From Patescibacteria group bacterium (GTDB lineage: Bacteria; Patescibacteriota; Patescibacteriia; 2-12-FULL-60-25): 64,000 nt of DNA. Below the pieces are notes generated by a model. It ran no database searches. It saw nothing but the letters and a program-made list of their open reading frames with translations, and was not told the DNA's origin. Made by a program: the position numbers and the translations under genes. Below, one piece after another: positions 31,701 through 62,679 of this stretch (within the stretch, counting starts at the first letter, position 1; each line of letters begins with the position of its first letter). The DNA lies in NCBI GenBank assembly GCA_028688515.1, contig JAQTXZ010000002.1, positions 25,791 to 89,790 of the forward strand. Reading direction: 5' to 3'.

Positions 31701-31983
31701 ACGGGAAGTCGTAGTTTCCCGGATCGCATTGGAGCCCGTTCCCTCCGTCGGGAAAGAAGTAGTGATCTCCGCCAGGATTATAGTTCTGCGAGTTTGCAAA
31801 CCCGCCCCCTTCAACAGGGAACAGGATGCCAGGCGCCCAAACGATGTCATCCGAGACGCCCGCAGTGCCGGACAGGTTCTCGAGATCCCCTGGGTCGTGA
31901 TACTCGACTGGCGAAGCGTGCGCCGCGAGCGATGAGGCGCAAATGGAAGTCACCGTCGCGAGGAGTATGCGTGGTCGTATCAT
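28744..31983 (-). CDS. large secreted M23 metallopeptidase-domain protein with Cys-rich CxxxDDDCDGxxDE repeats
   Basis: Signal peptide MIRPRILLATVTSICASSLAAHA. M23 motifs HQGQD and RHLHFEI. More than 10 repeats of the type CNGLDDDCDGAVDE/CDGKDNDCDGQIDEG. Gly-rich linkers. Confidence 0.8.
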   Translation of the reverse strand: MIRPRILLATVTSICASSLAAHASPVEYHDPGDLENLSGTAGVSDDIVWAPGILFPVEGGGFANSQNYNPGGDHYFFPDGGNGLQCDPGNYDFPWWDNFCEPRSWKNPACPAGTGHQGQDVRPPTCRDKLHWVVAVVDGSLTTFHDGWIILRADDGSAEYHYGHVATDPALGLKLHSHIARGQRIAKVSNLDANTGEPYTTRHLHFEIRLRVDAVYQFRSPYTSLIQPFSTACDSAFDCDDSSVGRLRRSWCIGRCISDCGESDRAIRERFFATDYGKTVPPGYPFDNGGGVGVHSWHGVFLQDFAPSLHCPVDQTHTWAILANDRKAYVVKGAFWGTYKCLADSAGPRLLGPPVEDERQVNLGNSESVTRQNFLNGHMWWGKGDKCPTPSEPCVHLHLPGYIPTLNPDCHDLVVVENEPGPDACMDNCTPGHAECTSQDSRSFCGTGFGSNPCYTMSPDQLCVDDTKCVDGQCISQGMGGSGGGGGGAGGSCSDGCSPGITTCGADEGKIYLCPPTGCLSDATTLANCGSWLLCTAPNGTCNTACGDENGPCCGSNSPSACKQGLSCNGSSCQSSGSGGAGGGSGGMGGAGGSGGTACTDECSPSNTWQCNSETEEYSCTLSGYCNVKVSPHTCDPGRVCVPGTGCTYCGKNGEPCCPGSTCAAEDSTCVSNGKCGPAGPVCPDADGDGIEDAACGGTDCDDSIWGVHPGGTELCNGLDDDCDGAVDEVFNLSADWANCGACLHKCLQGQWCSGGKCCGAETCNSVDDDCDGQVDAFSQSCGFDACAGGSQLCQAGAWGPCFRGGIQLPFTGYPTTEGVAGRCGNDVDDDCDGVVDCADSECSGLDGCLLVCVPTDPEVCDGKDNDCDGQIDEGLGSTACGIGQCAVTQDDCVGGVVQPCTPKPPGQETCNGLDDDCDGNADEGDPGGGSPCTVTQQLGECAKGTSSCSIGAIVCTQLVFPASEQCDGLDNNCNGMIDDGATLTFYRDADSDGFGDPTKPYAACSAPAGYVANSADCHDGNTSVHPGAAETCDGVVDDDCDGVIRPRAQQRVAKSASEGPAHTDSTRANEPRSGQIRN

Positions 31984-32516
31984 CACGGTGCTCCTTTGCC
32001 TCCCACGAATACCGAAATCGACGCCAAGGACCGGGCATGCTGAATCGAAGCCGTACATTGTTGTGCACAACTTTCGATTATCTCGTACGCGGCACCGAAC
32101 TGCGTCCAACTGAACGTGAATCTACCATCGTCACTCTCGTACTCAGACGTTGATTCCTCGACGACAGGAGTACCTGGTACGTGGAATCCGACCTTCGTCG
32201 CGCTGATGTAAACGGAGCGGCCTTGGTAGTCCGCCGCGAAAGCGTACCCGCCCGCGTCCGAAATTAGCTTTCCGTTCCTGAGTAGCTCGACTTGTCTTGG
32301 GAGCAGTACCGGTACCGGCGACATGGCAACTGCCGCTTGACTCTCCGGAGGCAGCAGCGCGAAGGCGAGCTCATCCGGCTTGTCAGCCGGCCAAGTTATG
32401 TCAGCCTGAAATCGCTCAGGCGTCACCGGGCGTTGAAGGACGTCACTTGGTCGATTGTCGCTCCTCCCGCAGCCAGTCAAGACCAGTGCAATAAGCCCAG
32501 CTAGCACGAGCGTCAT
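31983..32516 (-). CDS. lipoprotein, unknown function (alternative start 32564)
   Basis: Lipobox LIALVLTGC. The TGA overlaps the ATG of the M23 gene by 1 nt (TGATG). Confidence 0.6.
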   Translation of the reverse strand: MTLVLAGLIALVLTGCGRSDNRPSDVLQRPVTPERFQADITWPADKPDELAFALLPPESQAAVAMSPVPVLLPRQVELLRNGKLISDAGGYAFAADYQGRSVYISATKVGFHVPGTPVVEESTSEYESDDGRFTFSWTQFGAAYEIIESCAQQCTASIQHARSLASISVFVGGKGAP

Positions 32517-32658
32517 CGGTTCGAAGGGTGCAACGCGCCTGGGGAGCGAATGGAGTGGCGGCATAGTACCCAATATGGAATACCAATCGCGACCAATAGT
32601 CAACAGGCAGGGATTGCCGGCTCGTAGGCCACGTGTTACGTCCAGACTGCAAGATCGC

Positions 32659-32845
32659 TCAGTCAGGGATAGTTGGTGCGCCGGCCTCGAGGTCAGCTTC
32701 GCGGATGCGCACCAGGCGCCCGATTGCGGAAGTGTGCCATGTCGCCTCGGGCGAGCAGGGCGTACACGCCGGAGGTCGCCATGTTGAGGCGACGGGCGAC
32801 ATCCGAGGCTGTGAGCAAGCGCGTGGATTGAATAACAGTTTGCAT
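32659..32845 (-). pseudogene. frameshifted excisionase/MerR-type HTH gene
   Basis: MQTVIQSTRLLTASDVARRLNMATSGVYALLARGDMAHFR continues in another frame as IGRLVRIREADLEAGAPTIPD. The span is 187 nt, i.e. one extra base, near 32721-32727. Confidence 0.6.
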
Positions 32846-33252
32846 ATAGTATTGTAGAGATAGGAATCAGGCCCCTCCTTCCTCCTCGCCACGCGCGGGT
32901 GGCGCACGACAGCGGGTGGCGCACGACTTGACGGCGATCGCCGCGTGCGGTGAAATATCGGCATCGGATGCATAATGCCGCGTACATTAACACCAATTGC
33001 GCCCCTGAAAAGGGACGCTGGCGGTCGCCAATATTTCAAGATGCCGCCCTCGCGAGGGGGTGCTCTCATCTCGAAACCATGGTGACCGCTTTGGTGACAG
33101 GAATGTCGCGCACGAGACGTTTTGTAAACCGACTGGCCAGACGGTGACCCTGGCTGAAAGCCGCTCTGCTGCGTGCAATCAGTGCGTCTCCGTCGTGCTC
33201 GATCGGGCACGACGACGCGCTTCGGCAAGTTCAATTCCCGCTACCCGCTCCA

Positions 33253-37280: not shown

Positions 37281-37286
37281 TGTTTT

Positions 37287-37403
37287 CTGTAGAGACGCAA
37301 AATCTTGCGTCTAACCTAAAACATTAAAACGGTTTGTACGCATGATTGTTATGCGGTGGTTTGTTTGCATGCGAGTTAGACGCAAGATTTTGCGTCTCTA
37401 CAG
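37287..37403. repeat. inverted pair of the 26-nt hairpin repeat CTGTAGAGACGCAAAATCTTGCGTCT
   Basis: Copies at 37287-37312 and 37378-37403 (reverse complement). Further copies at 13647-13672 and 24549-24573. Confidence 0.85.
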
Positions 37404-49830: not shown

Positions 49831-49929
49831 GCCGTGTTCGTAAGCTTCTCCGGTCGATCTCCAAGATCGGCTTTTTTTGTAAAAATAGGAATGAATTTTG
49901 CGTGGATTTGTCGGTTGTTATCTGATTTC

Positions 49930-50065
49930 GTATACCGTCTAGGTATATGTGAAGTCGGCTGAAGTGAAGGCGGTAAAATTGAACTGTGCTCTACCGCCGT
50001 AACGGAAGCCGATTTGGGCGTAGCTGGGCGTTAGCCACAACGCAGGCACATATACCTTGTTGTAC
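49930..50065 (-). repeat. attC-like site A (distal, partly degenerate)
   Basis: Plus strand: ATTTCGTATACC-G-TCTAGGTATATGTG...CACATATACC-TT-GTTGTAC-GATGT. Confidence 0.55.
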
Positions 50066-50087
50066 GATGTTGTTGTGAAAATTTATT

Positions 50088-50792
50088 TCATTTCTTTGCA
50101 ATAATAAGTGCAGTGTTCAAATGCTCATAAGCAACACTAATTTCCGAAAAGCCTGCCTCCTTCAGCCAGTCAATTTGATCCTCAATCGGGGCAAGCAAGT
50201 TCAGAAATTTATGATGATAAGCCCATTCTTTAAGTGATGGTTCGTTGCGAGCATGTTCGACTAGGTGATGAAAATGCTGAGCATCATTAATGGCCGCCTT
50301 GGTTTTAGCTTTGTACGTGACTAAATCACCAAATATGAACACACCGCCAGACTTTAAAGAGCCGTAGATTTTTCTGAACAATTTTTTCTTACCTTCGTCT
50401 TTCTGATGATGGATACCAATAACAGATATAACCATATCGAAGTCGTCATCCAGGTTAATTTCAGCATAATCACCTAGGATATATGCGACGTTGTATTTTG
50501 ATAATCGCTTTTTTGCTCCGTCCATCATTTTTTCAGAAAAATCTACAGCCGTTAATGATGCGGTCGGGATAAGTTTCAGTATCTTTTCTGAAGTAAGCCC
50601 GGTTCCAATACCAAGCTCCAATATTCTTTCAACCTTGTTAGAAGCAATATACTCACGGGCGACCTCCTCAAATTTTTTATGCAGCTCATCATGACCTGGT
50701 ATTGAACGGCGAATATCATCGTCATAAATTTCTGACTCATACGAATCATAATTTAGATCGCCCGCAGCAACATTTGTGGTTCGATCATCCAT
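50088..50792 (-). CDS. cassette gene: class I SAM-dependent methyltransferase
   Basis: Motif I ILELGIGTGLTS and post-I AVDFS. Paralogue of 51691..52383 and 40239..40946. Confidence 0.8.
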   Translation of the reverse strand: MDDRTTNVAAGDLNYDSYESEIYDDDIRRSIPGHDELHKKFEEVAREYIASNKVERILELGIGTGLTSEKILKLIPTASLTAVDFSEKMMDGAKKRLSKYNVAYILGDYAEINLDDDFDMVISVIGIHHQKDEGKKKLFRKIYGSLKSGGVFIFGDLVTYKAKTKAAINDAQHFHHLVEHARNEPSLKEWAYHHKFLNLLAPIEDQIDWLKEAGFSEISVAYEHLNTALIIAKK

Positions 50793-50844
50793 ATTGTTAT
50801 TGCAAAGAAATGAATTGATAAGAGTAAATTTTCACAACAATTTC

Positions 50845-50983
50845 GTACAACGTTTCTGAATATCTGAAGTTTGCCAAAATTCCTTTAAAAATCAATTAGT
50901 TTTGGCAAATTTGGGTGAAGATATTTTGCATTCCTTAGCTTTTAATTGTGAAAAATTCCTGAACCGGATATGCCGTGTTATGT
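50845..50983 (-). repeat. attC-like site B
   Basis: ATTTC-GTACAAC-GTTT-CTGAATATCTGAAG...CCGGATATGCC-GT-GTTATGT-GATGT. Confidence 0.65.
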
Positions 50984-51007
50984 GATGTAGCCAGAAATTT
51001 CTATTCC

Positions 51008-51394
51008 TTAATTATTTTTGGTTTCTTTGTTTCTGTATGCATATAAATACAATGCAATAAATAATGGGATAAAAATAACAATATTAATTGTGGCAATAAC
51101 AGGTTGAGACAAGCCGCCCATATCTTTCTCTACTGTCTCTTGAACGACTTGTGACAATGGCAAAATATATTGTTGAAAAATATTCCAAACTATATATCCG
51201 CCAAAGAATATTTTCCAGAACATTAAACTAAACCATCTTTTTTGCCAACAGAATGCAAATAGCCCCACCATGGCTACCAACATAAGAGCAACATCAATAA
51301 CTTCCCAAACTCTTGAGAATCCTTGCCACAAATATGTTGGAATTATAGCAATTAAAAGAAACCAAAAATAAATTTTCCAAAAAGTTTTTTTCAT
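51008..51394 (-). CDS. cassette gene: 4-TM small membrane protein
   Basis: 128 aa with four hydrophobic helices. Confidence 0.6.
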   Translation of the reverse strand: MKKTFWKIYFWFLLIAIIPTYLWQGFSRVWEVIDVALMLVAMVGLFAFCWQKRWFSLMFWKIFFGGYIVWNIFQQYILPLSQVVQETVEKDMGGLSQPVIATINIVIFIPLFIALYLYAYRNKETKNN

Positions 51395-51500
51395 AATGTT
51401 ATTTGGTTAAAAATTAAATATATTTCATTATACACAAGTTATACCGACCACGAAATAAATTACCAAACAAATCTTAAAAAAAGAAATTTTTGGCTATTTC

Positions 51501-51600
51501 ACTTAACGTATCCGAATAAACGAAGTTCGTTTGAAACGCAGTGAGAACGAATTTGCGAAAATGCCGAGCCGAGGCATTTTCCGTTTATTCGGTGTTAGAC
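51501..51600 (-). repeat. attC-like site C
   Basis: ATTTC-ACTTAAC-GTAT-CCGAATAAACG...CGTTTATTCGG-T-GTTAGAC. Confidence 0.75.
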
Positions 51601-51690
51601 GAGGGTTTGTTTCGTCCTCCTATTATATCAATATTCAAAGGCAAAACAAAAGCGCAGCGTCCCCTTGCGTATGCCACAAACATAAATTAT

Positions 51691-52383
51691 TTACTTTTTA
51701 GCAAAGAATACAGCATAATTCATATATTCCCAAGTACTTCTCGAGTCAGAAAAGCCAGCGTCCCTTAGCCATTGCAATTGCTCATTAACCGAACTTGGCA
51801 AGTCCTCCTCTTTGTAATTATCAAACCAATATTGACCTTCTTTTGTCCCGAGATTTTTGATGAGAAAAGCCCTCCACTCTTCCTCTTTTGCAATAGTTTC
51901 TTTTTCTGAATCAAATTTGACAATATCCCCCAATACAAAGATACCACCACTTTTAAGATGATTGAAAATTTTCTTGAACAATTCTTTCTTTTGTTCACCA
52001 GTAAGATGGTGAACGGAGAGTACGGCCACACCAGCGTCGTAATGTTTTTCCTTAAGTTCAAGGTCTTTAATATCTTGCTCGATAAAATGAACATGACTCA
52101 GATTATCCCTTAAGCGAGTTTTGCCCTGTTCAATCATCTTGGGGGATATGTCAAATCCATCAATTACCGCTTGAGGATATTTGTTTAACAAGTGGAGGGC
52201 GGTTTTTCCAGTACCGATACCGAGATCCAATAATACTGGCTTTTCTGACGTTGTATTCACAAGGTCAATTACACTTTGATGCATTTTCTCATAATTTGGA
52301 ATGAGCTTTTTTATTAAAGCATCATAATCATGGTATTTCGCTTCAAAGTGTTCCTTGACTAAACTGCTGTGTTCATTTTCCAT
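51691..52383 (-). CDS. cassette gene: class I SAM-dependent methyltransferase
   Basis: Motif I LLDLGIGTGKTA. Same C-terminal extension ending FFAKK/IIAKK as 50088..50792. Confidence 0.8.
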   Translation of the reverse strand: MENEHSSLVKEHFEAKYHDYDALIKKLIPNYEKMHQSVIDLVNTTSEKPVLLDLGIGTGKTALHLLNKYPQAVIDGFDISPKMIEQGKTRLRDNLSHVHFIEQDIKDLELKEKHYDAGVAVLSVHHLTGEQKKELFKKIFNHLKSGGIFVLGDIVKFDSEKETIAKEEEWRAFLIKNLGTKEGQYWFDNYKEEDLPSSVNEQLQWLRDAGFSDSRSTWEYMNYAVFFAKK

Positions 52384-52414
52384 GAAAATTAATTTAGTTT
52401 TTGTGGCATATTTC

Positions 52415-52491
52415 GCCTAACGTTTCCGAGTATCTGATGTTGCGAAGCAATATGGGTGGAGCGAAGCGGAACCAGATACTCGGTGTTGTAC
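52415..52491 (-). repeat. attC-like site D
   Basis: ATTTC-GCCTAAC-GTTT-CCGAGTATCTG...CAGATACTCGG-T-GTTGTAC-GATGT. Confidence 0.8.
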
Positions 52492-52618
52492 GATGTAGAT
52501 TTTTTATCGTCGTCTTTAGTGGTACTTACGATATTTATTTTAAAAGAAAATTTGATTTTTTGTTTTGAAAAATTAAAGAGGGGTAGGGGGTGAATTTCAT
52601 TTTTCAAAGCTTATTATT

Positions 52619-53545
52619 CTACTTCTCAAGTAAGGGTCTTTGAAGCTCTGGGTTATTTTCGTCGATTTCGGCCATTTTATTTACTGGTATCAAATCAGCT
52701 ATAGATTCTTCACGTTTCCAATTTTGTAAAATATCCCAAATATTTCCTTCGCCAATGTAATCCATAGTTAGCTCACTTCTTTTTGCTTCATATTGCGGAT
52801 AAAGTACACTTTGCGGGTCTTTGATAAATCTTTCAGCAAAATCTTCTGTCCCATTGTAAACATCAGTAATCCATTCGGGTCTCAAGTCTAGTGTGTTTAC
52901 TTCTTTTTCCATTTCAATATTCATAGTTTTGAAGAGAGGATGAACTATTACATCATCGGAAGGTATAGAAAATTCAACAACAGGAAGTCCCTCTTTGTGA
53001 CCAGTGCGTGATTCAGCGGGATTGTGAGGGGGTTGATAAGAAGCTCCGACTGAGACTGAATTAAGTCCTGTCAAGCCCGGAAAATCACCACCGGGACCAA
53101 TATGCAGTTTGAATAATTTAATTCGAGGTATTTTGTGTTGAACAAAATTTCGATAACTATCTAATGAAAAATTGTCTGATAATTCAGCAAAGTCTTTTTC
53201 AAGTTGTGCGTAAATATCCTCTTGTTCAAGAAAACTTCGTAACGCATCTTTAATTCGTTTCGAATTTTTTTGAAAAGATTCTGCCGCATTAGGATTCTCC
53301 AAAACTGCATTTTGGGGATGGTTTAAAATTGCATTCAGTTCTTCATAACTAACCAATCTAAAATATCTGACAGGATTACCTTTGCTATCCTTGTCGGCGG
53401 CGGTTAGTATTTCCCGCTTACGTTCCTCTGGAAATAGATTGCGGGTTAACGATATTCTTTCTTCAATTGATGTGTCGGTAGCAGTAAGGCGAGAAATTAG
53501 AACATTTCGATTAATGTTTTCTGGCGTTGGCATTGCTTCGTTCAT
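52619..53545 (-). CDS. cassette gene: hypothetical protein
   Basis: 308-aa ORF bounded by sites D and E. No motif recognised. Confidence 0.6.
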   Translation of the reverse strand: MNEAMPTPENINRNVLISRLTATDTSIEERISLTRNLFPEERKREILTAADKDSKGNPVRYFRLVSYEELNAILNHPQNAVLENPNAAESFQKNSKRIKDALRSFLEQEDIYAQLEKDFAELSDNFSLDSYRNFVQHKIPRIKLFKLHIGPGGDFPGLTGLNSVSVGASYQPPHNPAESRTGHKEGLPVVEFSIPSDDVIVHPLFKTMNIEMEKEVNTLDLRPEWITDVYNGTEDFAERFIKDPQSVLYPQYEAKRSELTMDYIGEGNIWDILQNWKREESIADLIPVNKMAEIDENNPELQRPLLEK

Positions 53546-53638
53546 AAACCCCTTTATTATATTATTAAAAAAATGAAATTTTCTGTCTTTTTAAAATCAT
53601 TTAAACCCTATTTTACCACGAGATAAAAAATTTATTTC

Positions 53639-54256
53639 GTACAACGTTTCCGAATATCTGAAGTTGCGCCCGTGTTTATTGGTTAAAACTTCAAACATTC
53701 TACTATCTTAATTATATCACTAAACTTTGTTTTATCACAGCGCAATTTGAGTGGAACAGAAAAGAAAATCACAAATATTTTCCTTATTTTAAGCCCTTTT
53801 TTTGAATTTTTTGAAAGTGCTATGGACAAAGACTGAAAAATATGCTATAGTCTAGTGTCCAGTGGATTTCCCGCTGGCATACCTTACAAAGGAGGACATT
53901 ATGAGGATCGCTTTTCTTCTGGTAGCATTGTGGAATACGGTGGTGGCAGCAATTAACGTCAATATATTGCCGTTGTATATGTCACCGGAAGCCATGGTAT
54001 ATGTAACACCGTTATCACAGCTTCTTCCAATCTGTATACCACTCGTAATTGCGGCAGCATTGCCAAGTGGAGGCAATTCAATCACGCTCAACGACCTTCG
54101 CAAATGTTTGTCGTAAGCAATTCACGACTTACCCCCTGGTGGAATCTATTTCTACCAAGGGCTCTTTTTTTCAAAAAATTCAAAAAAAGGGCCATATAAA
54201 TTGTAAAAAATATTTGTGATTTTCTTTTCTGTGTAACCAGATATTCGGTGTTAGAT
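53639..54256 (-). repeat. attC-like site E, interrupted or expanded by a 477-bp IR-flanked module
   Basis: Left half ATTTC-GTACAAC-GTTT-CCGAATATCTG. Right half CAGATATTCGG-T-GTTAGAT-GATGT. The two halves are 590 bp apart. Confidence 0.55.
53901..54116 (+). CDS. small 2-TM hydrophobic protein inside site E (reverse orientation, own promoter and SD)
   Basis: ATG is 6 nt after AAAGGAGGA. TGGACA-17-TATAGT lies upstream (about 53823-53850). MRIAFLLVALWNTVVAAINVNILPLY.... Confidence 0.5.
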   Translation: MRIAFLLVALWNTVVAAINVNILPLYMSPEAMVYVTPLSQLLPICIPLVIAAALPSGGNSITLNDLRKCLS

Positions 54257-54355
54257 GATGTTTTGCCGACTCTGCAAGCTACAAATTACTTTATTGGAAC
54301 AAACTTTTTATCTGCACGAACATTTTTTAGTTTCTATATTACAAGGCGAAATTTC

Positions 54356-54422
54356 ATCTAACGTCATCGCGATATCTGACGTTTTAATGTGGCGAAGCCC
54401 TTGCAGATATCGCGTGTTAGGC
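54356..54422 (-). repeat. attC-like site F
   Basis: ATTTC-ATCTAAC-GTCAT-CGCGATATCTG...CAGATATCGCG-T-GTTAGGC-GATGT. Confidence 0.8.
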
Positions 54423-54439
54423 GATGTAAAGCCCAAAAA

Positions 54440-55309
54440 TTAATTTATAACCGCCATTAATGTTCTTTCTTTGCCAAATTTATTATAATCTTCTTTTGCT
54501 AAGGATAGACTATACGGAACGAAGGCTTGATCAATTAAACTTTCTGTTTTTTGATAAATGGTTTCAAAAAATTTTTTGTGTTGCACCGTGGCTTCAAAAC
54601 CATCCGTGTAAAAAACCACCAAATCTCCCTTGCTTAATCCGATTTCTCCAAAATTCATAAACTTTTCAGCTTCATTTTCACCGGTTAATGCGCCGTAAGA
54701 AACACATTTATTTTCAACGATTTTTTTGGCGTTGTTTCTATATTCAGACCTGATCATCTTGCGGTACTTAGGCATGGCAAAATTGAAATCGGATTTTTGC
54801 AGATTTGATTTTTCATATTCTTCAAACGTCTTCATCCAATTCGGTGTCTGAAATTTAATTTTGCCATTTTTATCATAAACAATAATTCCACAGTCACATA
54901 TTCCAGCCCAGAATAGTTTGCCGTTATAAATAATTCCACCACTGGCAACGCAGCCAAAAAAATCATTTATCAAGTAATCAACTTTTTTAGTATTGTCTTT
55001 GTTCAACTCGGCAATCTTTTTATTTCCAAAAATAAATGCGTTTCTGATTGTTTTTAATGAAGGAATTTTGTTATCTAGAGATTTTACAAACGATTCACAA
55101 AAAATATCAGCTGAAAAACGGGCACCACTTGGATTTGGATAATTTTTCAGAGAATCTTCTATGGACAAGTTTGTAAAATCTTTTGGAGAAATTGGATCTC
55201 GTGTAATTCCATCGGCAACACAAAAAATTTTTCCATCAACCATCATTGAATCTTCCGGAGGCATTAGATGTCCGTATAATAAATTTGGCAAAGATACTTT
55301 ATAAATCAT
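54440..55309 (-). CDS. cassette gene: PP2C/SpoIIE-like phosphatase-fold protein (tentative)
   Basis: FCVADGITRD and VVFYTDGFEA resemble the two Asp-containing PP2C motifs. Confidence 0.4.
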   Translation of the reverse strand: MIYKVSLPNLLYGHLMPPEDSMMVDGKIFCVADGITRDPISPKDFTNLSIEDSLKNYPNPSGARFSADIFCESFVKSLDNKIPSLKTIRNAFIFGNKKIAELNKDNTKKVDYLINDFFGCVASGGIIYNGKLFWAGICDCGIIVYDKNGKIKFQTPNWMKTFEEYEKSNLQKSDFNFAMPKYRKMIRSEYRNNAKKIVENKCVSYGALTGENEAEKFMNFGEIGLSKGDLVVFYTDGFEATVQHKKFFETIYQKTESLIDQAFVPYSLSLAKEDYNKFGKERTLMAVIN

Positions 55310-55333
55310 AAATTAATTTTTGGGCTTTATTTC

Positions 55334-55451
55334 GTCTAACGTTCCGGGCTATGCGAAGACCGCCTCAAGCGGTTTTGGGTGAGCGTCCTAATTCGCTTTA
55401 GCTACCTAAATACTAGCAAAACCGTCGCGAACCGCATAGCCCGAGTTAGCT
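55334..55451 (-). repeat. attC-like site G
   Basis: ATTTC-GTCTAAC-GTTC-CGGGCTATGCG...CGCATAGCCCG-A-GTTAGCT-GAAGT. Confidence 0.75.
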
Positions 55452-55673
55452 GAAGTATTCCTTTTCTTTTTTCCTTGATTTTACTGTTAAAATTTTTAAA
55501 TTTCTTTTTCTTTTCTGTGTGGAGGGCAAGAGGGGAAATAAAGGGGTGAATTGCCCGGAGCTACTAAAAAACTTTACTACATATAAAAAGGAAGGGGTTT
55601 AGGTTGGGGGTGGGGTGGGGTGGGGTGCTTTTTATTTAGGTTTGATTCCTAAAATTTTAATGTAAACTTACAG

Positions 55674-57929
55674 TTACTTATCAAATGTAACTATACCCTG
55701 TGCCTTGTTGTAAATATCAATTTTATTATCTATATCTACACGATTTACCAACCAACCAAGTAATTCGCATTGATGCACAAAATCATTAATTCTATTAACA
55801 CCATTAATCTCTTTTAATGTCACAACCAAACCAAAATTAATATCATTACTGCGCCTACTCAATCTTTCTTTTGATTTAACGCTGAGTCCCCACATGCCTT
55901 TATCGTAAACATCGCGTGCAAGAACTCTATCTGTAAAAATTTCATTTATATGTTTAGTGTTGTCCCATTTTCGGTAAAATTTCCTGGCGTTACCTTCGTA
56001 TATATAATGTTTTTCACCGTCATTATTATTTTGACAATTCTTGTTTATAGACTTGATGCCCTTGCCTTTGATTCTACCAAAATATATATCTAGCTCCGTG
56101 TTTGTGTAATCAACTCCTTGATTAATAGAGCAACTGGGGAAATAACATAAGGTAGCTTTAGCAACAAAAGGGTGTTTATTGTTATTTATTGGAACAGGTA
56201 AATTATAAGCATATGTATCCCATTTTTTAGAGATACCACTAATAATAAACTTTATTTCATCATTATCCGCTTTTATAATGTTTTCTATATTTTTAGGTAC
56301 TACACCATGACCCACAAAGGGTGCTAATTTAGTATTATTACCAATGCTATTCCACCCAGCAGCAGCATCTATAATTAGTGCTTTTGCGACTTCTCGGTTA
56401 AGCCCAAGGACTTCTATTAAATAAGCAATTTTTCGTGTTACCCATGGAGCTGCGTATGAAGTACCACTACATAAGCCTTCGCCAGTTGGCGTGCACACCC
56501 TAAGATAATCGCCTTTATCACCGCCATAACTGCTAACGTCTGGTTTATTAAAAAATGATAAAACTAACCCCTTTCTTGAATAGGTTGCTGGAGACCCCTT
56601 ACTATTTACCGAATTTACAACTATAGCGTTAATTGAATCGGCGGGTGAGCCAATCATTTTTTCCACTCTACTTTCATCGTCGCGTTTATTAGTACCTGCT
56701 ATTACAAAAATAACATTATTTTCGTATTGAATTTCGTCTAATATAGCAGCTTCTGGTGATATAAAATTGGGATTAATTTCTCTATCGGATCCCAAAGATA
56801 GATTCCATACTGTTATATCGGGATTTGAAGTAACTATCTCTCTTATGGCCTTCATAATAGAAAAAGCACTATACTGTCCTTGTGCGGCTACGCCAAAATG
56901 CCTAACTTTAAATCTACCACACCCATCATCTAGCTCTGGGTGAATAGTTGGCCCATCAACAATAATTGAACTTACCGATGTTCCGTGAACATAATCTTTG
57001 GATTCCGTAGGTATCTCCTCATTGATCATTTTTCTAAAATCCACCCATTCAGAAAAATATACTGATTTATCAAATAAAGTATCTATTACCCCTACAATAG
57101 GTTCGTCTTTTGGTGGGTCTATTGTTTTTATAGTCGCATCGCTGCTTGCGTCATCAACAACCTCCTCAAAACTTAGTTTAGATATATCTTCTGTCGACAT
57201 TGCAATAAGATAAGGAGCCTTGTCTGACAAGAGTTTAATTTCGTCTGGATATAAAAGTAAGGTGGTTTCACTTAGTATTTTATCAGGCTGAATATTTATA
57301 CCGATCCCTTTCATCAATTCAGTTAAATCGACATTTGTTTTATATACTGTAATTATCGATCTATTGTTTGTATTCGCGCTATTATTAGGAACCTTAAAAC
57401 CTTCTATATAATGTGAATCTACAATTATATTTCTAAAATTTGTTTTTGTGACCCCATATTTTTCATACTTAATATTTTTATCATTTAAACCACTAATCAA
57501 ATCGTGGGTTATCTTTCCGTTAAATATTTCATCTAATAGCTTTATACAGCCTTCTAATTTTTTAATTGTATCCTGAATTACTTTTTCGCTAACATGATGC
57601 GTAATCACATGTTTTCTTGTCACTTCATTAGCAAATCTCGCACCAACAACAGAATCATTTACAGAGCCACTATTTGATAATAGCCCACTTATCCTATTGC
57701 TCTTAGCGATGACGTCGATATAACAAACATCAACTAGGCAACCTTTGATAATACTTTGTCTAGTCCAATAATCAGCTAAGGCATTAAGCTGACTAACAAA
57801 AGACTTTAGTTTATCAGAATCTATAGATGGGGAATTTTTAGGAATGTTACGAGAGCTTGGCCGGATATCATGCGAGCGTTCCTGAAGAGTTCCTTTTAAT
57901 TGAAGTATGTTATTCATAATTTTAGACAT
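55674..57929 (-). CDS. S8 (subtilase) serine peptidase with ~290-aa unknown N-terminal domain (IetS-like)
   Basis: Catalytic contexts VGVIDT (D), HGTSVSSII (H), WNLSLG (N) and GTSYAAPWV (S). Confidence 0.85.
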   Translation of the reverse strand: MSKIMNNILQLKGTLQERSHDIRPSSRNIPKNSPSIDSDKLKSFVSQLNALADYWTRQSIIKGCLVDVCYIDVIAKSNRISGLLSNSGSVNDSVVGARFANEVTRKHVITHHVSEKVIQDTIKKLEGCIKLLDEIFNGKITHDLISGLNDKNIKYEKYGVTKTNFRNIIVDSHYIEGFKVPNNSANTNNRSIITVYKTNVDLTELMKGIGINIQPDKILSETTLLLYPDEIKLLSDKAPYLIAMSTEDISKLSFEEVVDDASSDATIKTIDPPKDEPIVGVIDTLFDKSVYFSEWVDFRKMINEEIPTESKDYVHGTSVSSIIVDGPTIHPELDDGCGRFKVRHFGVAAQGQYSAFSIMKAIREIVTSNPDITVWNLSLGSDREINPNFISPEAAILDEIQYENNVIFVIAGTNKRDDESRVEKMIGSPADSINAIVVNSVNSKGSPATYSRKGLVLSFFNKPDVSSYGGDKGDYLRVCTPTGEGLCSGTSYAAPWVTRKIAYLIEVLGLNREVAKALIIDAAAGWNSIGNNTKLAPFVGHGVVPKNIENIIKADNDEIKFIISGISKKWDTYAYNLPVPINNNKHPFVAKATLCYFPSCSINQGVDYTNTELDIYFGRIKGKGIKSINKNCQNNNDGEKHYIYEGNARKFYRKWDNTKHINEIFTDRVLARDVYDKGMWGLSVKSKERLSRRSNDINFGLVVTLKEINGVNRINDFVHQCELLGWLVNRVDIDNKIDIYNKAQGIVTFDK

Positions 57930-58968
57930 TTAGTTCTCTCGAAACTTGGCTTTTAGAAACTCCTGTTAATATTTCTATTTCTCTAACCGTAAAACCGCTG
58001 TGTTGTAATTTTTTTAAATCTATCTTGTTGTCTTTAGTCCGTATAGATTCATATAATTTTTTTAAGTAATCGTATTCATTATTTGGATCACTAAACGCTA
58101 GTGCGGTTTTAATTATATTTTTTAAATCACCGGGATAAGGAATATGATCTAATGTTAAAAATATTTTTTTAAATAGCCTCATATTGCGACTAGCGAATTT
58201 AAATTTTGTTAAAAACTCATTTAACATTGATTCTGCGACTTCAATCAATTCTTCTTTGTTATATCTATTAAAATTTATAGTTGAATCAAATCTTCTAAGT
58301 AACGCCTTATCGAATTGCCCAAAAAGATTAGTGGTGGCTATAAGTACGATTTCATCACTTAATCCATCCAACCCTTTTAAAACAGAAGATGTTACTCGAC
58401 CCATTTCTCGTAAATCATTAGAATTAATTCTATCTAGAGCTATTGCGTCTATCTCGTCAAACAAAATAATCACTTTTTCTGGGTGAGGTAATCTACTTAA
58501 CTCTGTAAAAACGGAAGCAATGTTTTTGGACGTTTGGCCAAGCTTGCTATCAATAACACTATCAAAATCTATCGCATATAAATCACGTTCAAGAATACGA
58601 GCAATCTGTTTTGCGGTTTCAGTTTTACCTGTTCCAGGATCACCCTCAAATAAGAACTTACTAACTCCAATTTTATGTCCAATTGAATTTATAATGCCCA
58701 CTATATCGTTTTTTATAAGAGTGGGGAGGGGGAAGGAGTTACTACTATCTAAGTTCACTCTCATAAAAAATGGAAGGCTGTATTCGTTGTCCTGTGGTAC
58801 AAAAGTATTAGCACCAGACAGCAAAGCCATAATATATTGAGCCAATTCAGAATCTCCAGTAGAATCGAAGTACCTAGCTATATCATAAGCTTCATTTTTA
58901 AAACCCGCCTCATTTTTTTCCGCATGGTATTTAATTAAATTTAAAATATTTTTTTTGCGCATATACAT
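57922..58968 (-). CDS. AAA+ ATPase with C-terminal HTH (IetA-like)
   Basis: Walker A GDPGTGKTETA, Walker B ILFDEIDAI, ATTN sensor-1. C-terminal FTVREIEILTGVSKSQVSRELN. 8-nt overlap with the S8 gene. Confidence 0.88.
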   Translation of the reverse strand: MYMRKKNILNLIKYHAEKNEAGFKNEAYDIARYFDSTGDSELAQYIMALLSGANTFVPQDNEYSLPFFMRVNLDSSNSFPLPTLIKNDIVGIINSIGHKIGVSKFLFEGDPGTGKTETAKQIARILERDLYAIDFDSVIDSKLGQTSKNIASVFTELSRLPHPEKVIILFDEIDAIALDRINSNDLREMGRVTSSVLKGLDGLSDEIVLIATTNLFGQFDKALLRRFDSTINFNRYNKEELIEVAESMLNEFLTKFKFASRNMRLFKKIFLTLDHIPYPGDLKNIIKTALAFSDPNNEYDYLKKLYESIRTKDNKIDLKKLQHSGFTVREIEILTGVSKSQVSRELNV

Positions 58969-59231
58969 TTTTTTAATGAAATGAATTTATGTTATCCATA
59001 CTTTATATTAACATATTTGGGACACCAGTACAACAAAATGGGACACAATAATAAAAAATTGCGATTTCATTGATGTTTTGCCTTTCATATATTTAATCCT
59101 ATTAATGCAAAAAACGCCTTAACTAGGCGTTTTCCGTTGCTGTCTTTAGCTTAAACAATATATGAAATTTCACTTTTTCCATTAGAACCACATTTTTTGT
59201 GCATTTTCCATGCTGGTTTTGATTTATTTAG

Positions 59232-60395
59232 TTACCGATTTCCCTTTGCCCTATTATGCGTCTTACACAACATCTGACAGTTTTTTGTTGCAGTTTTACC
59301 GCCTTTGCTCCAAGCGGCAACATGATCTGCATCCATATCACTCAAGCTCCAAATTTTATCTATGTTTGCATCGTGGCCTATTGCACAATGTGGGCAGTTT
59401 GAAACACCTTTTTCCTTTGCAGTAGCGGTTTGAACTTCGTAAACTGACCGCTTAGTCGGGTCATCAAATACACGCACCTCCAGTAATTTTTTATCAACCT
59501 CACCACCTAAAACATATTCGAAAATCCCTCGTCGATTCTTTACGTAAGCATCACCGTACAGCTTCTGTACTGAAGCGGACACTTTAGCCGGGTCGTATTT
59601 TTTCTTGTGGTAAGTTTTGTAAAGCCTGTTCCACTCAAGACCTTTCATTTCGCTTTCAACGTCTGTGAACGTGGTTGAAACCCAGTCGATAACAGTATTA
59701 AAATGCTTTTTTAATTCGGTTATATTTTTATCATTACGGTGCATGCTCATATAATTGTCGATCGCACCATCAGAAACCCAATCCAAAGCACGCTCCAAAT
59801 ATGCTTGGCGCTTAATGTCACCAGCAATGTACGTGCTCCACTTCTGTACGTTTGCGTTTTGGCTATTACTAAACTCTTCGCGCGCCTTGGTAACAAAAGG
59901 CCCTGAATAAACAGCGTTCAAGATTTCTTGCTCTGTCAGTGGCACACCAGCGATATTGATAGTTTTAAACCAATCCTTAATTTCAGGTTCGTCACCTTCA
60001 CATACATACACTAGTAATTTAGTGTCCATTATTTGCTCACGCTGACTACTAGCCATGCCACTGAAATACTGTTCATGGCCATTTTTATCTTTGACAGCAA
60101 ACTTACCTGCCACAAACCGACCAATACTTGTGATGCGTTGCTGTCCGTCGAGCACTTCAAATATATCAGTACCTGCTTGGTTAAAATAAATTAAACCTAT
60201 CGGATAACCTTTCAAAATTGAATCGATCACCGCAACGTCTCTTTTACCATCGGCATAAATGTAATTACGTTGGTACTCTGGCTGAATAGTTAACTTGCCT
60301 GACAAGCCAAACAAGCCTTTTCCTTCCAGTTCGTTATAAACAAAACCGTCGCAAATTTCTTTTATAGTGATGTCTTTTTTTAGGGTTGTTTTCAT
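59232..60395 (-). CDS. DUF262 (ParB/GmrSD N-terminal-like) + HNH nuclease fusion
   Basis: [12 protein letters not shown] motif. C-terminal CPHC...DADHV...[18 protein letters not shown]/zinc-hook. Confidence 0.8.
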
Positions 60396-60397
60396 AA

Positions 60398-61552
60398 CTA
60401 TTTTTGCAGTTGTTTAACTAATAATCGCGGAAATGTTTGACGATAAAGTTTTTCATTTACAATGTAATAAGTTTTGTTTTTAAGTGGTTCACTAATTTTT
60501 AAAACTGCACCATCATTTAATTTAGTTACCTTACTTTTTTCATTATTTTCTCCGACCTGTATTTGTTCAGGATAGGTTTTGGTAGCAGCACCGAACCAGG
60601 TTTTAGTTAAACCCAGAATTTCAAATTGATCAGGATTGTACTTATCTAGAAACGAAACAGGAACCCCCATAACACCATTGTAATTGCTAGGGATAGCGTC
60701 GACAAAAGGAACTTCAATTGCGTTAAAATTATCATATTTTTCGTACGCTTGTTTTCCTTGCAGTTTTTTGTTGAATTTTTTGTTATCACTCATAGACATC
60801 AGACTCATGGGTTGATGGCGACGACCGTGATCAAGATTAGTGAACCAACCCACGTTTCCAAACGACTGAGTTGAGCCATCGGGTTTATTAAATACTTTGA
60901 CTTTACTATATCCAAACCATATTTTATTGTCCTTAACCAACGGAAAGATTTCTTTTAGAGTAATAGAGTTTTGATTACCTATAATAAGAAAATTCCTTTT
61001 ATATTCTACTAGCTGTGCCACGTACTCACGAAATAAACTAAATGGTGGATTAGTCACCACAATATCACTTTTCTTAAGAAGTTCTATACATTCGTCACTA
61101 CGAAAATCACCGTCGCCGTCAAGAGGAGTCCATTCGTTATTTTTATTCGCTCGAAGTTGTTGTGCAATATCTTCTAGTGTAAAGGACCCGTCGCCGTCTA
61201 TATCGCCAACTTCGTTGATAATAAATTTGTTAGCAGTGATTTTAGGTCTCCCCTTTGATTTGGTAAGAGTTTTGTCATCGCCAAATAATCCCAGTTGTGT
61301 ATTGGCTACGGGTGAGGGTTTGTAACTCGTTGAAATAAGTTTTTTTAGGCCCAAACGATCAAAGTTTAATACAAAATAACGAAAGAAATTGCTTTCGTAT
61401 GGGTCGTCGCAGTTGCTGTAAATTACCTTATTTTTAAAAGTATTTGGGTTATACTCAAGATAAGATTCAATTTCTTTCTGAATATCTGAAAATTGCGTAT
61501 AGAATTCATCATTTTTTGCTTTTTTTGCTTTTGTGAGGTTTTTGTTTGCCAT
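60398..61552 (-). CDS. N6-adenine DNA methyltransferase, EcoRI-methylase-like family
   Basis: NDEFYTQ N-terminal motif and TNPPFS (NPPF) catalytic motif. ATG at 61552 (the TTG at 61573 is an alternative). The stop is 2 nt from the DUF262-HNH start. Confidence 0.8.
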
Positions 61553-61863
61553 ACATTCAATATATTCCTCCAATTACATTAATAAATCAAGATATTAATA
61601 TAAAATTAGATTTTCGTAGAAACTCCTTATAACCCCCTCTAAAATTAAATCCCAACATTATGAAAAGAAAAAGAAATTTGAAAATTTTACTAAATGGCTT
61701 TGTTCGTAGCTAAGAAAAAAGAAAAGGAATATTTCAGCTAACTCTTTTTTATACGAAAACACTTCGTATAGCTATCCACATCTTGCCACTTAGGCGAAAA
61801 AATGTATAGAATGGATTAGGTGTGAAGAGTTGACGGCCTCACTAATTATTAAAGTGAGGTTTT

Positions 61864-62679
61864 ATGTTAGATGAACAATTGAAGCGGACGTCGGACGAGA
61901 TGGTTTTGCGTAATTACAGTCAAAAAACGGTTAAGGCGTATGTTGGTTGTATTGAGGATTATCTAAGTCAGAATCAAGCGGACTTATATTGGTGTGATAT
62001 CGAGGCGATCCGTCAATTTTTGCTGGAGAAGCAGTCAAGAGGGTTGGCGCCGCAGACTATCAATCTATATCTAAACGCCATAAAGTTTTATTATCGTGAT
62101 GTTTTGCATTTAGGCGACACGATCAATCTAAAATTCGCTAAACGCTCGAAGAAGCTACCGGTTGTTCTGTCGAAAAGCGAAGTTTTACGAATCATTGACG
62201 CTGTCAGCAATCCAAAACATAAAGCGATGATCGCTTTGGCATACGGTGCCGGCCTTCGTGTTAGCGAGGTCGTTAAATTGCGGATCGGGGACTTGAATTT
62301 GGAGGAGTTGACCATCCATCTCAAGCAAGCAAAGGGAAACAAAGATCGGATTACCATCTTGTCTGCATCTATAGTAAATGATTTAAGACGGTTGATGACT
62401 GGAAGGTTGGTCGGCGATTTTGTGTTTGCCAGTGAACGCGGAGGGAGATTGACGGAGAGGACGGCGCAAAAGATTTTTGAACATGCCCTTAAAGCCGCCC
62501 GAATCGGTCGGGGAGCGACATTTCATTCGTTGAGGCACAGCTTCGCGACTCATCTTTTGGAAAATGGAGTTGATGTCAGGTACGTTCAGGAACTTCTTGG
62601 TCACCAGAATATTCGGACTACGCAGATTTATACGCACATAACCAATCCGGCGATGCGGCGGATTGTAAGTCCGCTATGA
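61864..62679 (+). CDS. tyrosine recombinase, IntI-like but without the IntI-specific insertion
   Basis: N-terminal SAM-like YSQKTVKAYVGCIEDYL. Catalytic contexts AGLRVSE (R), HSLRHSFATH (H-x-x-R) and LLGHQNIRTTQIYTH (H...Y). C-terminal ...RRIVSPL resembles IntI1 ...GVRSPL. Confidence 0.9.
   Translation: MLDEQLKRTSDEMVLRNYSQKTVKAYVGCIEDYLSQNQADLYWCDIEAIRQFLLEKQSRGLAPQTINLYLNAIKFYYRDVLHLGDTINLKFAKRSKKLPVVLSKSEVLRIIDAVSNPKHKAMIALAYGAGLRVSEVVKLRIGDLNLEELTIHLKQAKGNKDRITILSASIVNDLRRLMTGRLVGDFVFASERGGRLTERTAQKIFEHALKAARIGRGATFHSLRHSFATHLLENGVDVRYVQELLGHQNIRTTQIYTHITNPAMRRIVSPL

Follow-up and report, generated by a model that had tools for sequence, protein, structure and literature searches.

The only tyrosine recombinase encoded in the window, a stretch of 64 kb from an uncultured Patescibacteria (CPR) bacterium, is probably the integrase of an integron-like gene-capture platform: it belongs with the closest relatives of the integron integrase IntI, keeps the length of a Xer/XerA recombinase and is devoid of the I2 helix region, or patch. 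Its gene stands beside an attI-like core and an array of seven cassettes closed by attC-like hairpins (Table 1), an organization found again, with a fixed polarity, in other genomes.

A recombinase without the I2 region

The additional domain bearing the I2 helix, located around patch III between the beta-hairpin and box II, defines IntI and has been reported as necessary for its activity. An earlier note on this DNA had proposed that the recombinase resembles IntI at both termini and lacks the IntI-specific insert, and family scores, alignment and structure comparison all bear this out. Of the HMMs which the note had suggested scoring, Pfam Phage_integrase (PF00589) matches at 2.9e-45 and Phage_int_SAM_4 at 1.9e-11. 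The integron integrase model TIGR02249 matches in two stretches with 206.7 bits, below its cutoff of 265, and the IntI model NF011946 reaches 127.6 for a cutoff of 435. The top NCBIfam model is recomb_XerA_Arch, marginally short of its cutoff (215.9 bits versus 220), and the XerC and XerD models give 181.9 and 181 for cutoffs of 335 and 330. Comparison with the PDB pairs residues 11-175 of the query with 11-178 of VchIntIA (2a3v) and residues 195-271 with 241-317, a two-block match which therefore leaves about 60 IntI residues without counterpart; the XerA structures 4a8e and 5hxy align with it from end to end.

Aligning the protein with IntI1 and VchIntIA, to which it is 34-35% identical, located the difference: both integrases have two insertions, of 29 and 11 columns, after the KGxKxR hairpin and ahead of HxLRH, in the I2 helix region, and these are absent from the window protein, its relatives and XerD. 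For this alignment the IntI1 sequence was 100% identical to the annotated intI1, VchIntIA was checked against 2a3v, and XerD was that of E. coli. The spacing between KGNKDRITIL and ATFHSLRH, previously estimated at about 50 residues, is 51 aa. The catalytic residues R132, K157, H221, R224, H247 and Y256 are invariant. The structure prediction that the earlier note had called for gave an AF2 model (pLDDT 85) with a complete two-domain fold, and its closest match by structure, at E 4e-16, is VchIntIA, the superposition leaving about 45 gap columns; the IntI patch appears neither in the alignment nor in the superposition.

A bootstrapped neighbor-joining tree gathered IntI and the patch-less proteins in a 100% group, leaving outside two XerA with solved structures and XerD, so that the recombinase does not fall among the characterized dimer-resolving Xer proteins, the placement that would have spoken against the proposal. 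The tree is a rough one, with three outgroups and with IntIs of the Vibrio type plus IntI1; this sampling is thin because a VchIntIA search for diverse IntIs returned only Vibrio-type ones, and the monophyly of the patch-less clade has a bootstrap support of 47%. Close homologues exist in thousands, with a length of about 270 aa in CPR, and the gene is vertically inherited in a core neighborhood with ComEC, RecA and FtsK. Judged from its sequence, the 271-aa protein is among the closest relatives of IntI, yet it has the length and the layout of Xer/XerA; the best reading is that this integrase never acquired, or lost, the I2 domain.

The cassette array, its hairpin sites and the attI-like core

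Table 1. Coordinates of the array, hairpin sites, attI-like region and recombinase gene in the window. R1, covariance model.
Feature	Position	Strand	Content or support
Array of seven cassettes	49937..61742	genes on -	one orientation; 35% GC, host about 50%
Cassette c1	55341-61742	-	EcoRI-like methylase, GmrSD/HNH nuclease, AAA ATPase, S8 peptidase
Cassette c2	54363-55340	-	weak PP2C-like match, under Pfam cutoff
Cassette c3	53646-54362	-	
Cassette c4	52422-53645	-	without named function
Cassette c5	51508-52421	-	SAM methyltransferase
Cassette c6	50852-51507	-	no Pfam match
Cassette c7	49937-50851	-	SAM methyltransferase
Site G (end of c1)	55327..55458	+	R1 72.6 bits, E 4e-15; fold
Site F	54349..54429	+	R1 65.8 bits; fold
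Site E	53633..54261	+	R/L arms at both ends, loop about 560 nt; nhmmer module matches; repeats I19, I25
Site D	52408..52498	+	R1 78.6 bits; fold
Site C	51494..51607	+	R1 88.2 bits; fold
Site B	50838..50990	+	R1 63.9 bits; L arms pair imperfectly
Site A (last in array)	49923..50072	+	R1 56.7 bits; degenerate R box GTATACC
attI-like core	61736..61757	+	RYYYAAC, 7 nt, TATACGAA; 120 nt upstream of recombinase gene
Cassette-derived R arm of core	61736-61742		AGCTAAC; junction after 61742; followed by spacer TCTTTTT
Box of core	61750-61757		TATACGAA
Palindrome	61750..61770		TATACGAA-AACAC-TTCGTATA; attI box plus inverted accessory copy
Promoter-like site	61783..61812	+	TTGCCA-18-TAGAAT, for recombinase gene; 10/12 positions match
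Second box copy	61791-61798	+	TAGGCGAA, within spacer of promoter-like site
Recombinase gene	61864..62679	+	ATG start, 271 aa; I2-less (patch-less) tyrosine recombinase, proposed array integrase

The arrays are AT-rich compared with both of their flanks and, as in integrons, their cassettes are delimited directly after AAC (between G and TT on the coding strand). The attC-like sites all have one orientation relative to attI and are separated mostly by single ORFs. Within the same cassette, across the ORF, R' and R'' are complementary at 7, 5, 6, 7, 7, 6 and 7 of 7 positions for the seven cassettes, and inside one hairpin only at 4-5 of 7. The termini of cassettes also carry their own inverted repeats (I11, I12, I21).

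Folded as single strands, the sites present an R helix (RYYYAAC/GTTRRRY), a bulge of 3-4 nt confined to one side, an uninterrupted L helix of 11 bp and a variable branched loop. The spacer between the helices is 3-5 nt long on one arm but a single nucleotide on its partner; the folds contain neither extrahelical bases in the L helix nor a roughly symmetric unpaired central spacer. ATTTC/GATG lengthens the R helix, as do inverted repeats of 27-33 nt that are particular to each cassette. These long cassette-end repeats had been put forward as elements that the recombinase might recognize: they are extensions of the R-box helix and change from cassette to cassette. What is conserved is the R box, ATTTC-RYYYAAC, and a TAT-N-Y-G-A-N-GT box common to attI and to the L arm of the hairpin, and these are therefore probably the recognized elements. 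Site E, missed by the covariance model, encloses in its loop inverted repeats of its own and a 72-aa ORF on the + strand, and site B is possibly a hybrid.

Covariation supports the fold: over 53 sites from 22 sequences (21 loci and the window), 87.5% of the cells are paired and compensatory changes occur in 10 of the 11 L-helix pairs, with none of 500 shuffles as good and a slide control peaking at register 0 only. Searching Rfam at the gathering threshold returned four tRNAs and nothing else, and the hairpin sites therefore lie outside any curated family. Regex and complementarity scans for AAC...GTT hairpins did not tell one strand or one flank from the other, the counts being similar, and were replaced by module profiles and then by the covariance model.

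On the recombinase side, the gene adjoins a conserved attI-like core, from which it is transcribed away and at which the cassette junction falls between G and TT. The region homologous to the sister genome L001 begins at 61740, at the AAC junction, and the RYNY positions of the R arm vary between sister genomes despite syntenic right flanks. In about 25 CPR loci the layout RYYYAAC, 7 nt, TATRCGAA recurs ahead of the gene, at a distance of 69-160 nt, and in most CPR loci a copy of the box lies between the -35 and -10 elements. The palindrome formed by the attI box and its inverted accessory copy is also present in L001, L005, L012 (where its spacer is inverted) and L041. It had been considered as the crossover core, a candidate rejected on finding that the arms of TATACGAA-N5-TTCGTATA have the wrong orientation for the junction as mapped; for the same reason we treat it as a box plus an accessory copy. 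Matches of the attI profile in CPR are circular because the profile was trained on CPR junctions; independent support comes from the direct reading of CPR loci and from untrained profile matches downstream of the gene in L036, L040 and L051, along with regex matches in L040, L051, L062 and L080. The profile and regex searches found no clear attI in most of the non-CPR loci.

Recurrence in other genomes

The earlier note had asked whether such arrays accompany the protein elsewhere, and they do. Examining flanks of up to 10 kb on each side of the homologues, we obtained 68 matches of the covariance model in 83 sequences with related recombinases (1.07 Mb; the model was trained on the same loci, themselves picked for their similarity to the query). 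Every one of the 68 is on the side of the array and is directed toward the recombinase: those upstream are on the + strand, those downstream on the - strand, and the two other configurations are empty. Among CPR loci, 15 distinct ones have an upstream flank of 1 kb or more, and 14 of these carry sites there; in four further groups, Flavobacteriia, Cytophagales, Spirochaetota and Firmicutes, the sites are downstream. The covariance-model search gave no match for most DPANN homologues and for many of the non-CPR bacterial ones. Altogether, about 30 independent loci, spread over five or more phyla, combine gene, attI and array with fixed polarity. Contigs tend to end at the array: less than 600 nt from the gene, a contig end is met on the array side in 20 of 32 CPR loci and on the other side in 1 of 32. 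In a cultured strain of Flavobacterium difficile (L062), 12 or more copies of the repeat, spaced by 486-1332 nt, lie next to a patch-less homologue, and the attI core is the same. Restriction-modification or other defense genes are found in the first cassette of the window and of two sister genomes.

Taken with the conserved attI-like core and the tree, this strict polarity supports the idea, read from sequence, of a non-canonical integron type served by an Xer-length recombinase.

Comparison with known systems, alternative readings and significance

The likeness to integrons is extensive: a tyrosine recombinase stands beside attI, followed by cassettes, mostly of a single ORF, that are arrayed in one direction and each end in an imperfect palindrome with R'', L'', L' and R' boxes; the core is RYYYAAC/GTTRRRY with its boundary between G and TT; R' is part of the next cassette; and the sites resemble each other within one array. 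Both orientations of the integrase gene are found, as in integrons when the 'inverted integrase' type of Spirochaetes is included, the gene being divergent in CPR and co-directional in the other phyla (Flavobacteriia, Cytophagales, Spirochaetota, Firmicutes). The differences concern the integrase, which has no I2-helix domain and scores below the IntI HMM cutoffs, and the sites: canonical attC have extrahelical bases and a roughly symmetric spacer, whereas here 3-4 nt bulge out on one side only, R'/L' of the bottom strand, and there is an R helix extended by ATTTC/GATG and the cassette-specific repeats. Integrons were reported to be absent or very rare in CPR, Bacteroidota and Firmicutes (PMC9024848), and the hosts found here include these groups.

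Other Xer-based systems share parts of this design. In Vibrio cholerae, XerC without I2 acts on the CTX phage, a single-stranded IMEX whose incoming folded hairpin mimics a two-arm core with an irregular central region, and which integrates beside a chromosomal core site and accumulates in tandem. Here, the mobile units are not phages but promoter-poor cassettes of one gene each, of which an array has from 7 to at least 12; the site is in the promoter region of the recombinase itself and, it appears, not at a GC-skew switch; and one recombinase replaces the XerC/XerD pair. The XerA/dif, XerS/difSL and XerH/difH systems likewise use one recombinase of about 270-290 aa, and no cassette array is known to accompany them; archaeal XerA, which provides the best NCBIfam model and the end-to-end structural alignment, differs in that characterized XerA fall outside the group of IntI and patch-less proteins. 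In Acinetobacter, too, an Xer-length recombinase moves discrete units, the pdif modules, in which genes are flanked by Xer-type sites, but these sites are double-stranded XerC/D sites of 28 bp in alternating orientation on plasmids, without hairpin, attI or polarity toward a recombinase gene.

These resemblances make it worth considering that the protein is a single XerA-like dimer resolvase and the upstream site its dif, the cassettes being IMEX-type parasites which hijack Xer/dif through a folded hairpin, as the CTX phage does, and the recombinase not being dedicated to them. We regard this as unlikely, while giving it more weight than any other alternative. The near-cutoff score of the XerA_Arch model, the Xer length and layout, the thousands of homologues of about 270 aa in CPR and the conserved core neighborhood with ftsK and recA, as expected of a housekeeping Xer, speak in its favor. 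In the single-recombinase systems XerS and XerH, moreover, dif adjoins the gene. Hijacking of Xer/dif by single-stranded elements is also a discussed scenario (PMC7790495). Against it, GC skew keeps the same sign on both flanks of the locus in the window, L010, L012, L018, L024 and L063, which points to a position away from the skew switch that would mark a bacterial dif; from one sister genome to the next, the left arm of the site has been replaced; the box copy inside the promoter suggests a dedicated attI with autoregulation; and the clade groups with IntI and not with characterized XerA. The two readings exclude each other only in part, as a dual-use enzyme fits both: the integrase proposed here may also serve as the chromosomal Xer, resolving dimers at attI.

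It seems very improbable that the neighborhood of gene and array is a coincidence, the array being a CALIN, a group of attC sites without an integrase, served in trans by a canonical IntI located elsewhere or in other cells, and the recombinase having nothing to do with it. CALINs are common, most of the reported archaeal integrons are CALINs (PMC9668308), and the genome is known here from 64 kb only; yet the same arrangement recurs with fixed polarity in the independent loci described above, the distance from junction to gene is fixed and the sites do not have the extrahelical bases that IntI reads. Least credible of all is that the repeats are no recombination sites but intergenic structured repeats (REP-like elements or terminators) of a variable island. 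They do lie between convergently packed ORFs and fold into hairpins, but they point strictly toward one gene in many phyla, their half-sites form a junction with the conserved core beside it, R' and R'' are complementary within cassettes and not within hairpins, and a search for T-tract terminators found none.

For the patch-less integrase, a mechanism can be proposed by analogy with IntI and with XerC acting on the CTX phage. Recombinase monomers would bind the R box and the TAT-N-Y-G-A-N-GT box, set 7 nt apart in double-stranded attI and, in the folded hairpin, 9 and 6 nt apart on the two arms. A single strand would be cut after AAC and exchanged, and the junction would be resolved via replication without a second exchange, a resolution which fits the lack of shared homology between the central regions of attI and the hairpin. 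With no extrahelical bases in the L helix, the base-reading domain of IntI would not be needed, and the one-sided bulge may both set the choice of the strand and block the second exchange, a lethal step. The unpaired bases are on the arm opposite to the canonical extrahelical ones, and the strand choice of IntI is therefore not transferable. Since the central regions vary from one site to another and do not match that of attI, double-stranded recombination between half-sites was judged unlikely.

The prevailing view holds that gaining the I2 helix was the innovation which allowed recombination of folded single-stranded attC. In one published scenario, I2 was acquired in a Xer-like ancestor hijacked by single-stranded elements (PMC7790495). 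Our literature search, subscription-only papers being outside its scope, found no account of a patch-less integron integrase or of CPR integrons. If our reading is true, a widespread natural sister of IntI heading cassette arrays without I2 would make the I2-acquisition scenario testable, and the cultured Flavobacterium strains that carry the system make experiments feasible. The recurrence points to a kind of integron that has been overlooked and is possibly ancestral. In its broadest form, to which we give an even chance, the proposal is that of a second phylum-spanning integron lineage with an I2-less XerA-like integrase and attC without extrahelical bases, near-universal in Patescibacteria/CPR and occurring also in Flavobacteriia, Cytophagales, Spirochaetota, Firmicutes and some DPANN archaea. 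Such a lineage would explain arrays missed by current tools or labelled CALIN 'lacking an integrase', and would represent either the state before I2 or a different route by which the recombination of single-stranded cassettes evolved from Xer. Pipelines demanding the IntI patch would then systematically overlook these platforms. The known range of integron-like gene capture would widen to take in CPR bacteria, Bacteroidota and Firmicutes, and the defense genes in the first cassettes of the window and its two sister genomes suggest that, in ultrasmall bacteria, it is a system for exchanging them.

Recombinase without the IntI additional domain

The only tyrosine recombinase in the 64-kb window is a 271-aa protein, the one that the earlier note had quoted; the same sequence is recorded for a Patescibacteria (CPR) MAG. 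The profile scoring proposed there recovered both domains in Pfam, Phage_integrase (2.9e-45) and a SAM-like N-terminal domain. In NCBIfam the top model was archaeal XerA (215.9 bits, cutoff 220) and the second was the integron-integrase model TIGR02249 (206.7 bits versus a cutoff of 265), which matched in two separate stretches. The XerA structures 4a8e and 5hxy aligned with the recombinase from end to end, and the VchIntIA structure 2a3v did so in two pieces, with residues 179-240 of VchIntIA skipped. Our sequence alignment included an IntI1 with 100% identity to annotated intI1 on plasmids, a VchIntIA matching 2a3v across 320 residues, and E. coli XerD. Insertions of 29 and 11 columns lie in IntI1 and VchIntIA between the KGxKxR hairpin and HxLRH, and are absent from the window recombinase, four relatives and XerD. 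The catalytic residues are invariant, and the recombinase is 35% identical to VchIntIA, 34% to IntI1 and 31% to XerD. For its AlphaFold model (pLDDT 85) the closest structure was VchIntIA (E 4e-16), followed by XerA, and the structural alignment with VchIntIA was about 45 columns longer than the query. The alignment, the two-piece match and the structure comparison thus bear out the claim that the IntI-specific segment is missing, and the two-stretch matches of TIGR02249 and 2a3v confirm the resemblance to IntI on either side of it.

Homologues of about 270 aa number in the thousands, hundreds of them at 60-65% identity. A neighbor-joining tree (271 columns, 200 bootstraps) was built from IntI1, Vibrio IntIs, patch-less proteins (those without the additional domain), the XerA of P. 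abyssi and T. acidophilum, and E. coli XerD. The IntIs and the patch-less proteins formed one group with 100% bootstrap and the two XerA and XerD fell outside it, so that the phylogenetic check raised by the earlier note places the recombinase with IntI; within the group, support was 100% for the IntIs alone and 47% for the patch-less set. Since the method and the sampling are weak, we take the coarse result alone, namely that the patch-less proteins are the nearest relatives of IntI lacking the patch. Scanning one genome per species gave 80 loci encoding relatives (designated L), and the K-to-H distance was short, 65-66 aa, wherever spacing was measurable, except in L078 (80 aa). In eight Bacteroidota loci (L039, L047, L049, L055, L060, L070, L075, L083) the open frame that contains the recombinase runs for 550-630 codons from stop to stop, so the patch-less recombinase there may carry about 300 aa of fused N-terminal extension.

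Hairpin sites, attI-like core and their polarity

The ORFs of the array are separated by seven repeats which read, on the recombinase-sense strand, ATTTC-RYYYAAC, GT(N)2-3, L'' (11 nt), AAGTT, variable hairpins, ATTTGGG..., L' (11 nt), T and GTTRRRY-GATG. As single strands they fold into an R helix, a one-arm bulge of 3-4 nt, an uninterrupted 11-bp L helix and a branched loop. In 13 hand-picked sites the two helices were 86% paired, with compensatory changes in 8 of 11 L-helix pairs; in 53 sites from the covariance model R1, whose alignment was fitted to that model and is somewhat favoured by it, 87.5% of cells were paired and 10 of 11 L-helix pairs were compensatory. None of 500 shuffles matched these values, and sliding the register by 1-3 columns made the pairing collapse. 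Inside one hairpin, pairing is poor at the variable RYY/RRR positions of the R helix (4-5 of 7). The R boxes at the two ends of the same cassette are complementary at 7, 5, 6, 7, 7, 6 and 7 of 7 positions, a complementarity that reaches 27-33 nt in three inverted repeats (I11, I12, I21) and is the signature of circularised cassettes inserted, like those of integrons, by exchange at AAC/ (G/TT on the coding strand; the slash marks the junction). Two sites are near-identical between CPR genomes whose recombinases are only 55% identical. In two others an ORF lies within the loop: in the window one for a hydrophobic protein of 72 aa (+ strand) with its own flanking inverted repeats (I19, I25), and in L001 a cupin cassette that has GTTAAGA...TCTTAAT as its bounds. 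Both appear to result from nested insertion, the loop providing a secondary site. A Wolfebacteria genome (L012, CP011209) repeats three times a composite unit, about 190 nt long. The unit is a hairpin site with an additional internal GTTAGGCGATG and a mini-cassette of 40 nt bounded by inverted ends of its own.

Just upstream of the recombinase gene the window reads CAGCTAAC/TCTTTTT-TATACGAA-AACAC-TTCGTATAG. Everything right of AAC/ is kept in two sister genomes; to its left the R arm differs in L001 (CACACAAC) and is the same as the window in L005, and blastn homology between window and L001 begins at 61740, the junction. Direct reading of the 230 nt ahead of the gene at 28 CPR loci showed (ATTTC)RYNYAAC, exactly 7 nt and TAT(A/G)CGAA in nearly all. 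A second TAT(A/G)CGAA box follows after about 45 nt, placed between a TTG... -35 and a TATAAT-like -10. The arms TTTCGYYTA and TATRCGAAA are inverted repeats, which is how a tyrosine-recombinase core site is laid out, and the left arm of this one came from the last cassette inserted. Past the spacer, the hairpin consensus is TAT-S-Y-G-A-N-GT, similar to the TAT-R-C-G-A-A-GT of the attI box. Both attI and the hairpins therefore present a TAT arm as well as an R arm; the two are separated by 7 nt in attI, and by 9 nt on one hairpin arm and 6 nt on the other. In L012 the attI palindrome has a 5-nt spacer, GTGTT, inverted relative to AACAC of the window. The Shine-Dalgarno just ahead of the recombinase start codon is overlapped by an inverted repeat that is conserved in L001 and L005; by sequestering the ribosome-binding site, this repeat could control integrase translation.

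R1 gave 68 matches at E <=1 in 1.07 Mb. They lie either upstream on the recombinase sense strand, in CPR (L001, L010-12, L017, L018, L020, L021, L024, L026, L031-33, L041, L063 and the window), a Spirochaete (L046) and a Woesearchaeote (L048), or downstream on the opposite strand, in Flavobacteriia (L047, L050, L051, L062), Cytophagales (L086), Spirochaetota (L040, L043), Paenibacillus (L035) and Saccharibacillus (L042). The other two configurations hold 0 of the 68, and the sites are therefore always oriented toward the recombinase; the association recurs next to relatives in CPR and other phyla. Among the CPR loci, 15 distinct ones have an upstream flank of 1 kb or more; 14 of these carry upstream sites, and R1 found no site within 10 kb downstream of the gene in any of the 15. 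Contigs end less than 600 nt from the gene upstream in 20 of 32 CPR loci versus 1 of 32 downstream, and in other phyla breaks are downstream (14 versus 3), as expected if an array on that side is repeat-rich or strain-variable. The cultured Flavobacterium difficile KDG-16 (L062) has a site of about 150 nt in at least 12 copies, 486-1332 nt apart, between co-directional single ORFs directly after the recombinase gene, and the core there is that of the attI-like site (TGCGTATA, 7 nt, G/TTAGCA).

Genomic neighbourhood

GC is 35% at 49.9-61.7 kb and about 50% on both sides. In the two sister genomes (84% and 70% identity) the right flank is kept (recombinase, ComEC and, at a greater distance, RecA and FtsK). 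The left flank differs between them, all its genes are directed away from the recombinase, and it carries restriction-modification genes and, in L001-L003, also small cassettes. Cassette 1 of the window is 6.4 kb long and holds four genes, for a methylase, a nuclease, an ATPase and a subtilase, and other restriction-modification or helicase sets occupy its position in sister genomes, so the first slot looks like a defence-gene slot. A module of about 100 nt (..CCCCTC..AAAGAAAAAGAAATTT..GGAATATTTCAGCTAAC) recurs at cassette ends as inverted pairs in several CPR genomes, and in the window contains a promoter-like site directed into cassette 1. Elsewhere, a high-GC block (about 60%) follows tRNA-Gly, runs up to a 29-nt copy of the 3' end of the tRNA (93% identical) and holds a 1121-aa ORF (-) with internal repeats of 44-54 nt; it looks like an island integrated at the tRNA, and no integrase was seen within it. 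The host part of the window also has two kinds of short intergenic repeats at dispersed positions, frequently paired as inverted copies over long range.

Coordinates of features in the window and in related loci
Feature	Position	Strand	Detail
Recombinase gene	61864-62679	+	271 aa
Recombinase promoter-like site	61783-61812		TTGCCA-18-TAGAAT, TAGGCGAA in spacer
Inverted repeat at Shine-Dalgarno	61836-61866		CCTCACT-N9-AGTGAGG
Cassette 1 genes	55674-61573	-	EcoRI-like adenine methylase, GmrSD-N/HNH nuclease, AAA ATPase, S8 subtilase
Cassette-end module	55443-55550, 61662-61744; L005 5627-5700; L017 342-453, 4284-4359; L012 8798-8941		
Promoter-like site in module	61684-61657	-	TTTTCA-16-CATAAT
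Sites with ORF in loop	53646-54256; L001 8830-9323		
Near-identical sites	L001 2264-2377; L017 240-355		
Composite units	L012 7716-7918, 8512-8700, 9708-9897		
tRNA-Gly and high-GC block	28555-33252		
tRNA-Gly	28555-28629		
Copy of tRNA 3' end	33224-33252		
Tandem 14-nt units and palindrome	5742-5844, 13205-13911, 22752-22806, 36691-36727; also 13644-13672, 24545-24576, 37285-37403		units AATTAAGAATTATG, GATATTCAGCGAAGCG; palindrome AGACGCAAGATTTTGCGTCT

Proposed mechanism, rival explanations and relation to integrons

The main rival to an integron-like system is that the recombinase is the cell's Xer, the core site is dif and the cassettes are hijackers resembling IMEX (single-stranded elements of the CTX phage type). 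It is supported by the XerA-like score, by how widespread the family is and by synteny with core genes, but the sign of the GC skew is unchanged across the locus in six genomes, the left arm of the core site turns over, a box lies within the recombinase promoter and the patch-less clade groups with IntI. The recombinase may also have a dual role, as array integrase and as Xer. The polarity statistics exclude for practical purposes both that it adjoins the array by coincidence and that the hairpin repeats serve a role unrelated to recombination.

The anatomy, conservation, covariation and polarity of the sites, the position of the junction and the turnover between sister genomes are observations, next to which a mechanism of cassette integration may be proposed. 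The recombinase would bind both arms, R and TAT, in double-stranded attI as well as in the folded hairpin, cut after AAC and exchange one strand, the product being resolved by replication. Single-strand exchange is favoured because the attI centre (TCNTTTN) and the hairpin centres (GTNNSSGNA, site-specific) share no homology. The I2 helix of IntI serves to dock extrahelical bases and to prevent the second exchange (PMC7790495); the hairpin sites have no extrahelical bases, so a patch-less enzyme suits them. The one-sided bulge is the obvious candidate for what might set polarity, although in these sites it occupies the R'/L' side of the bottom strand, the reverse of the canonical arrangement.

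Full-text searches turned up neither a description of CPR integrons nor one of an integron integrase lacking the patch. Integrons are very rare in Firmicutes and Bacteroidetes according to IntegronFinder 2.0 (PMC9024848), and the study of archaeal integrons, which stresses the additional domain in its IntIs, counted 6 IntIs for 539 attC sites, most in CALINs (PMC9668308). The recombinase lacks the defining feature of IntI and the hairpin sites lack two of the three unpaired features of canonical attC, but the recombinase-array system resembles integrons in its architecture and logic.
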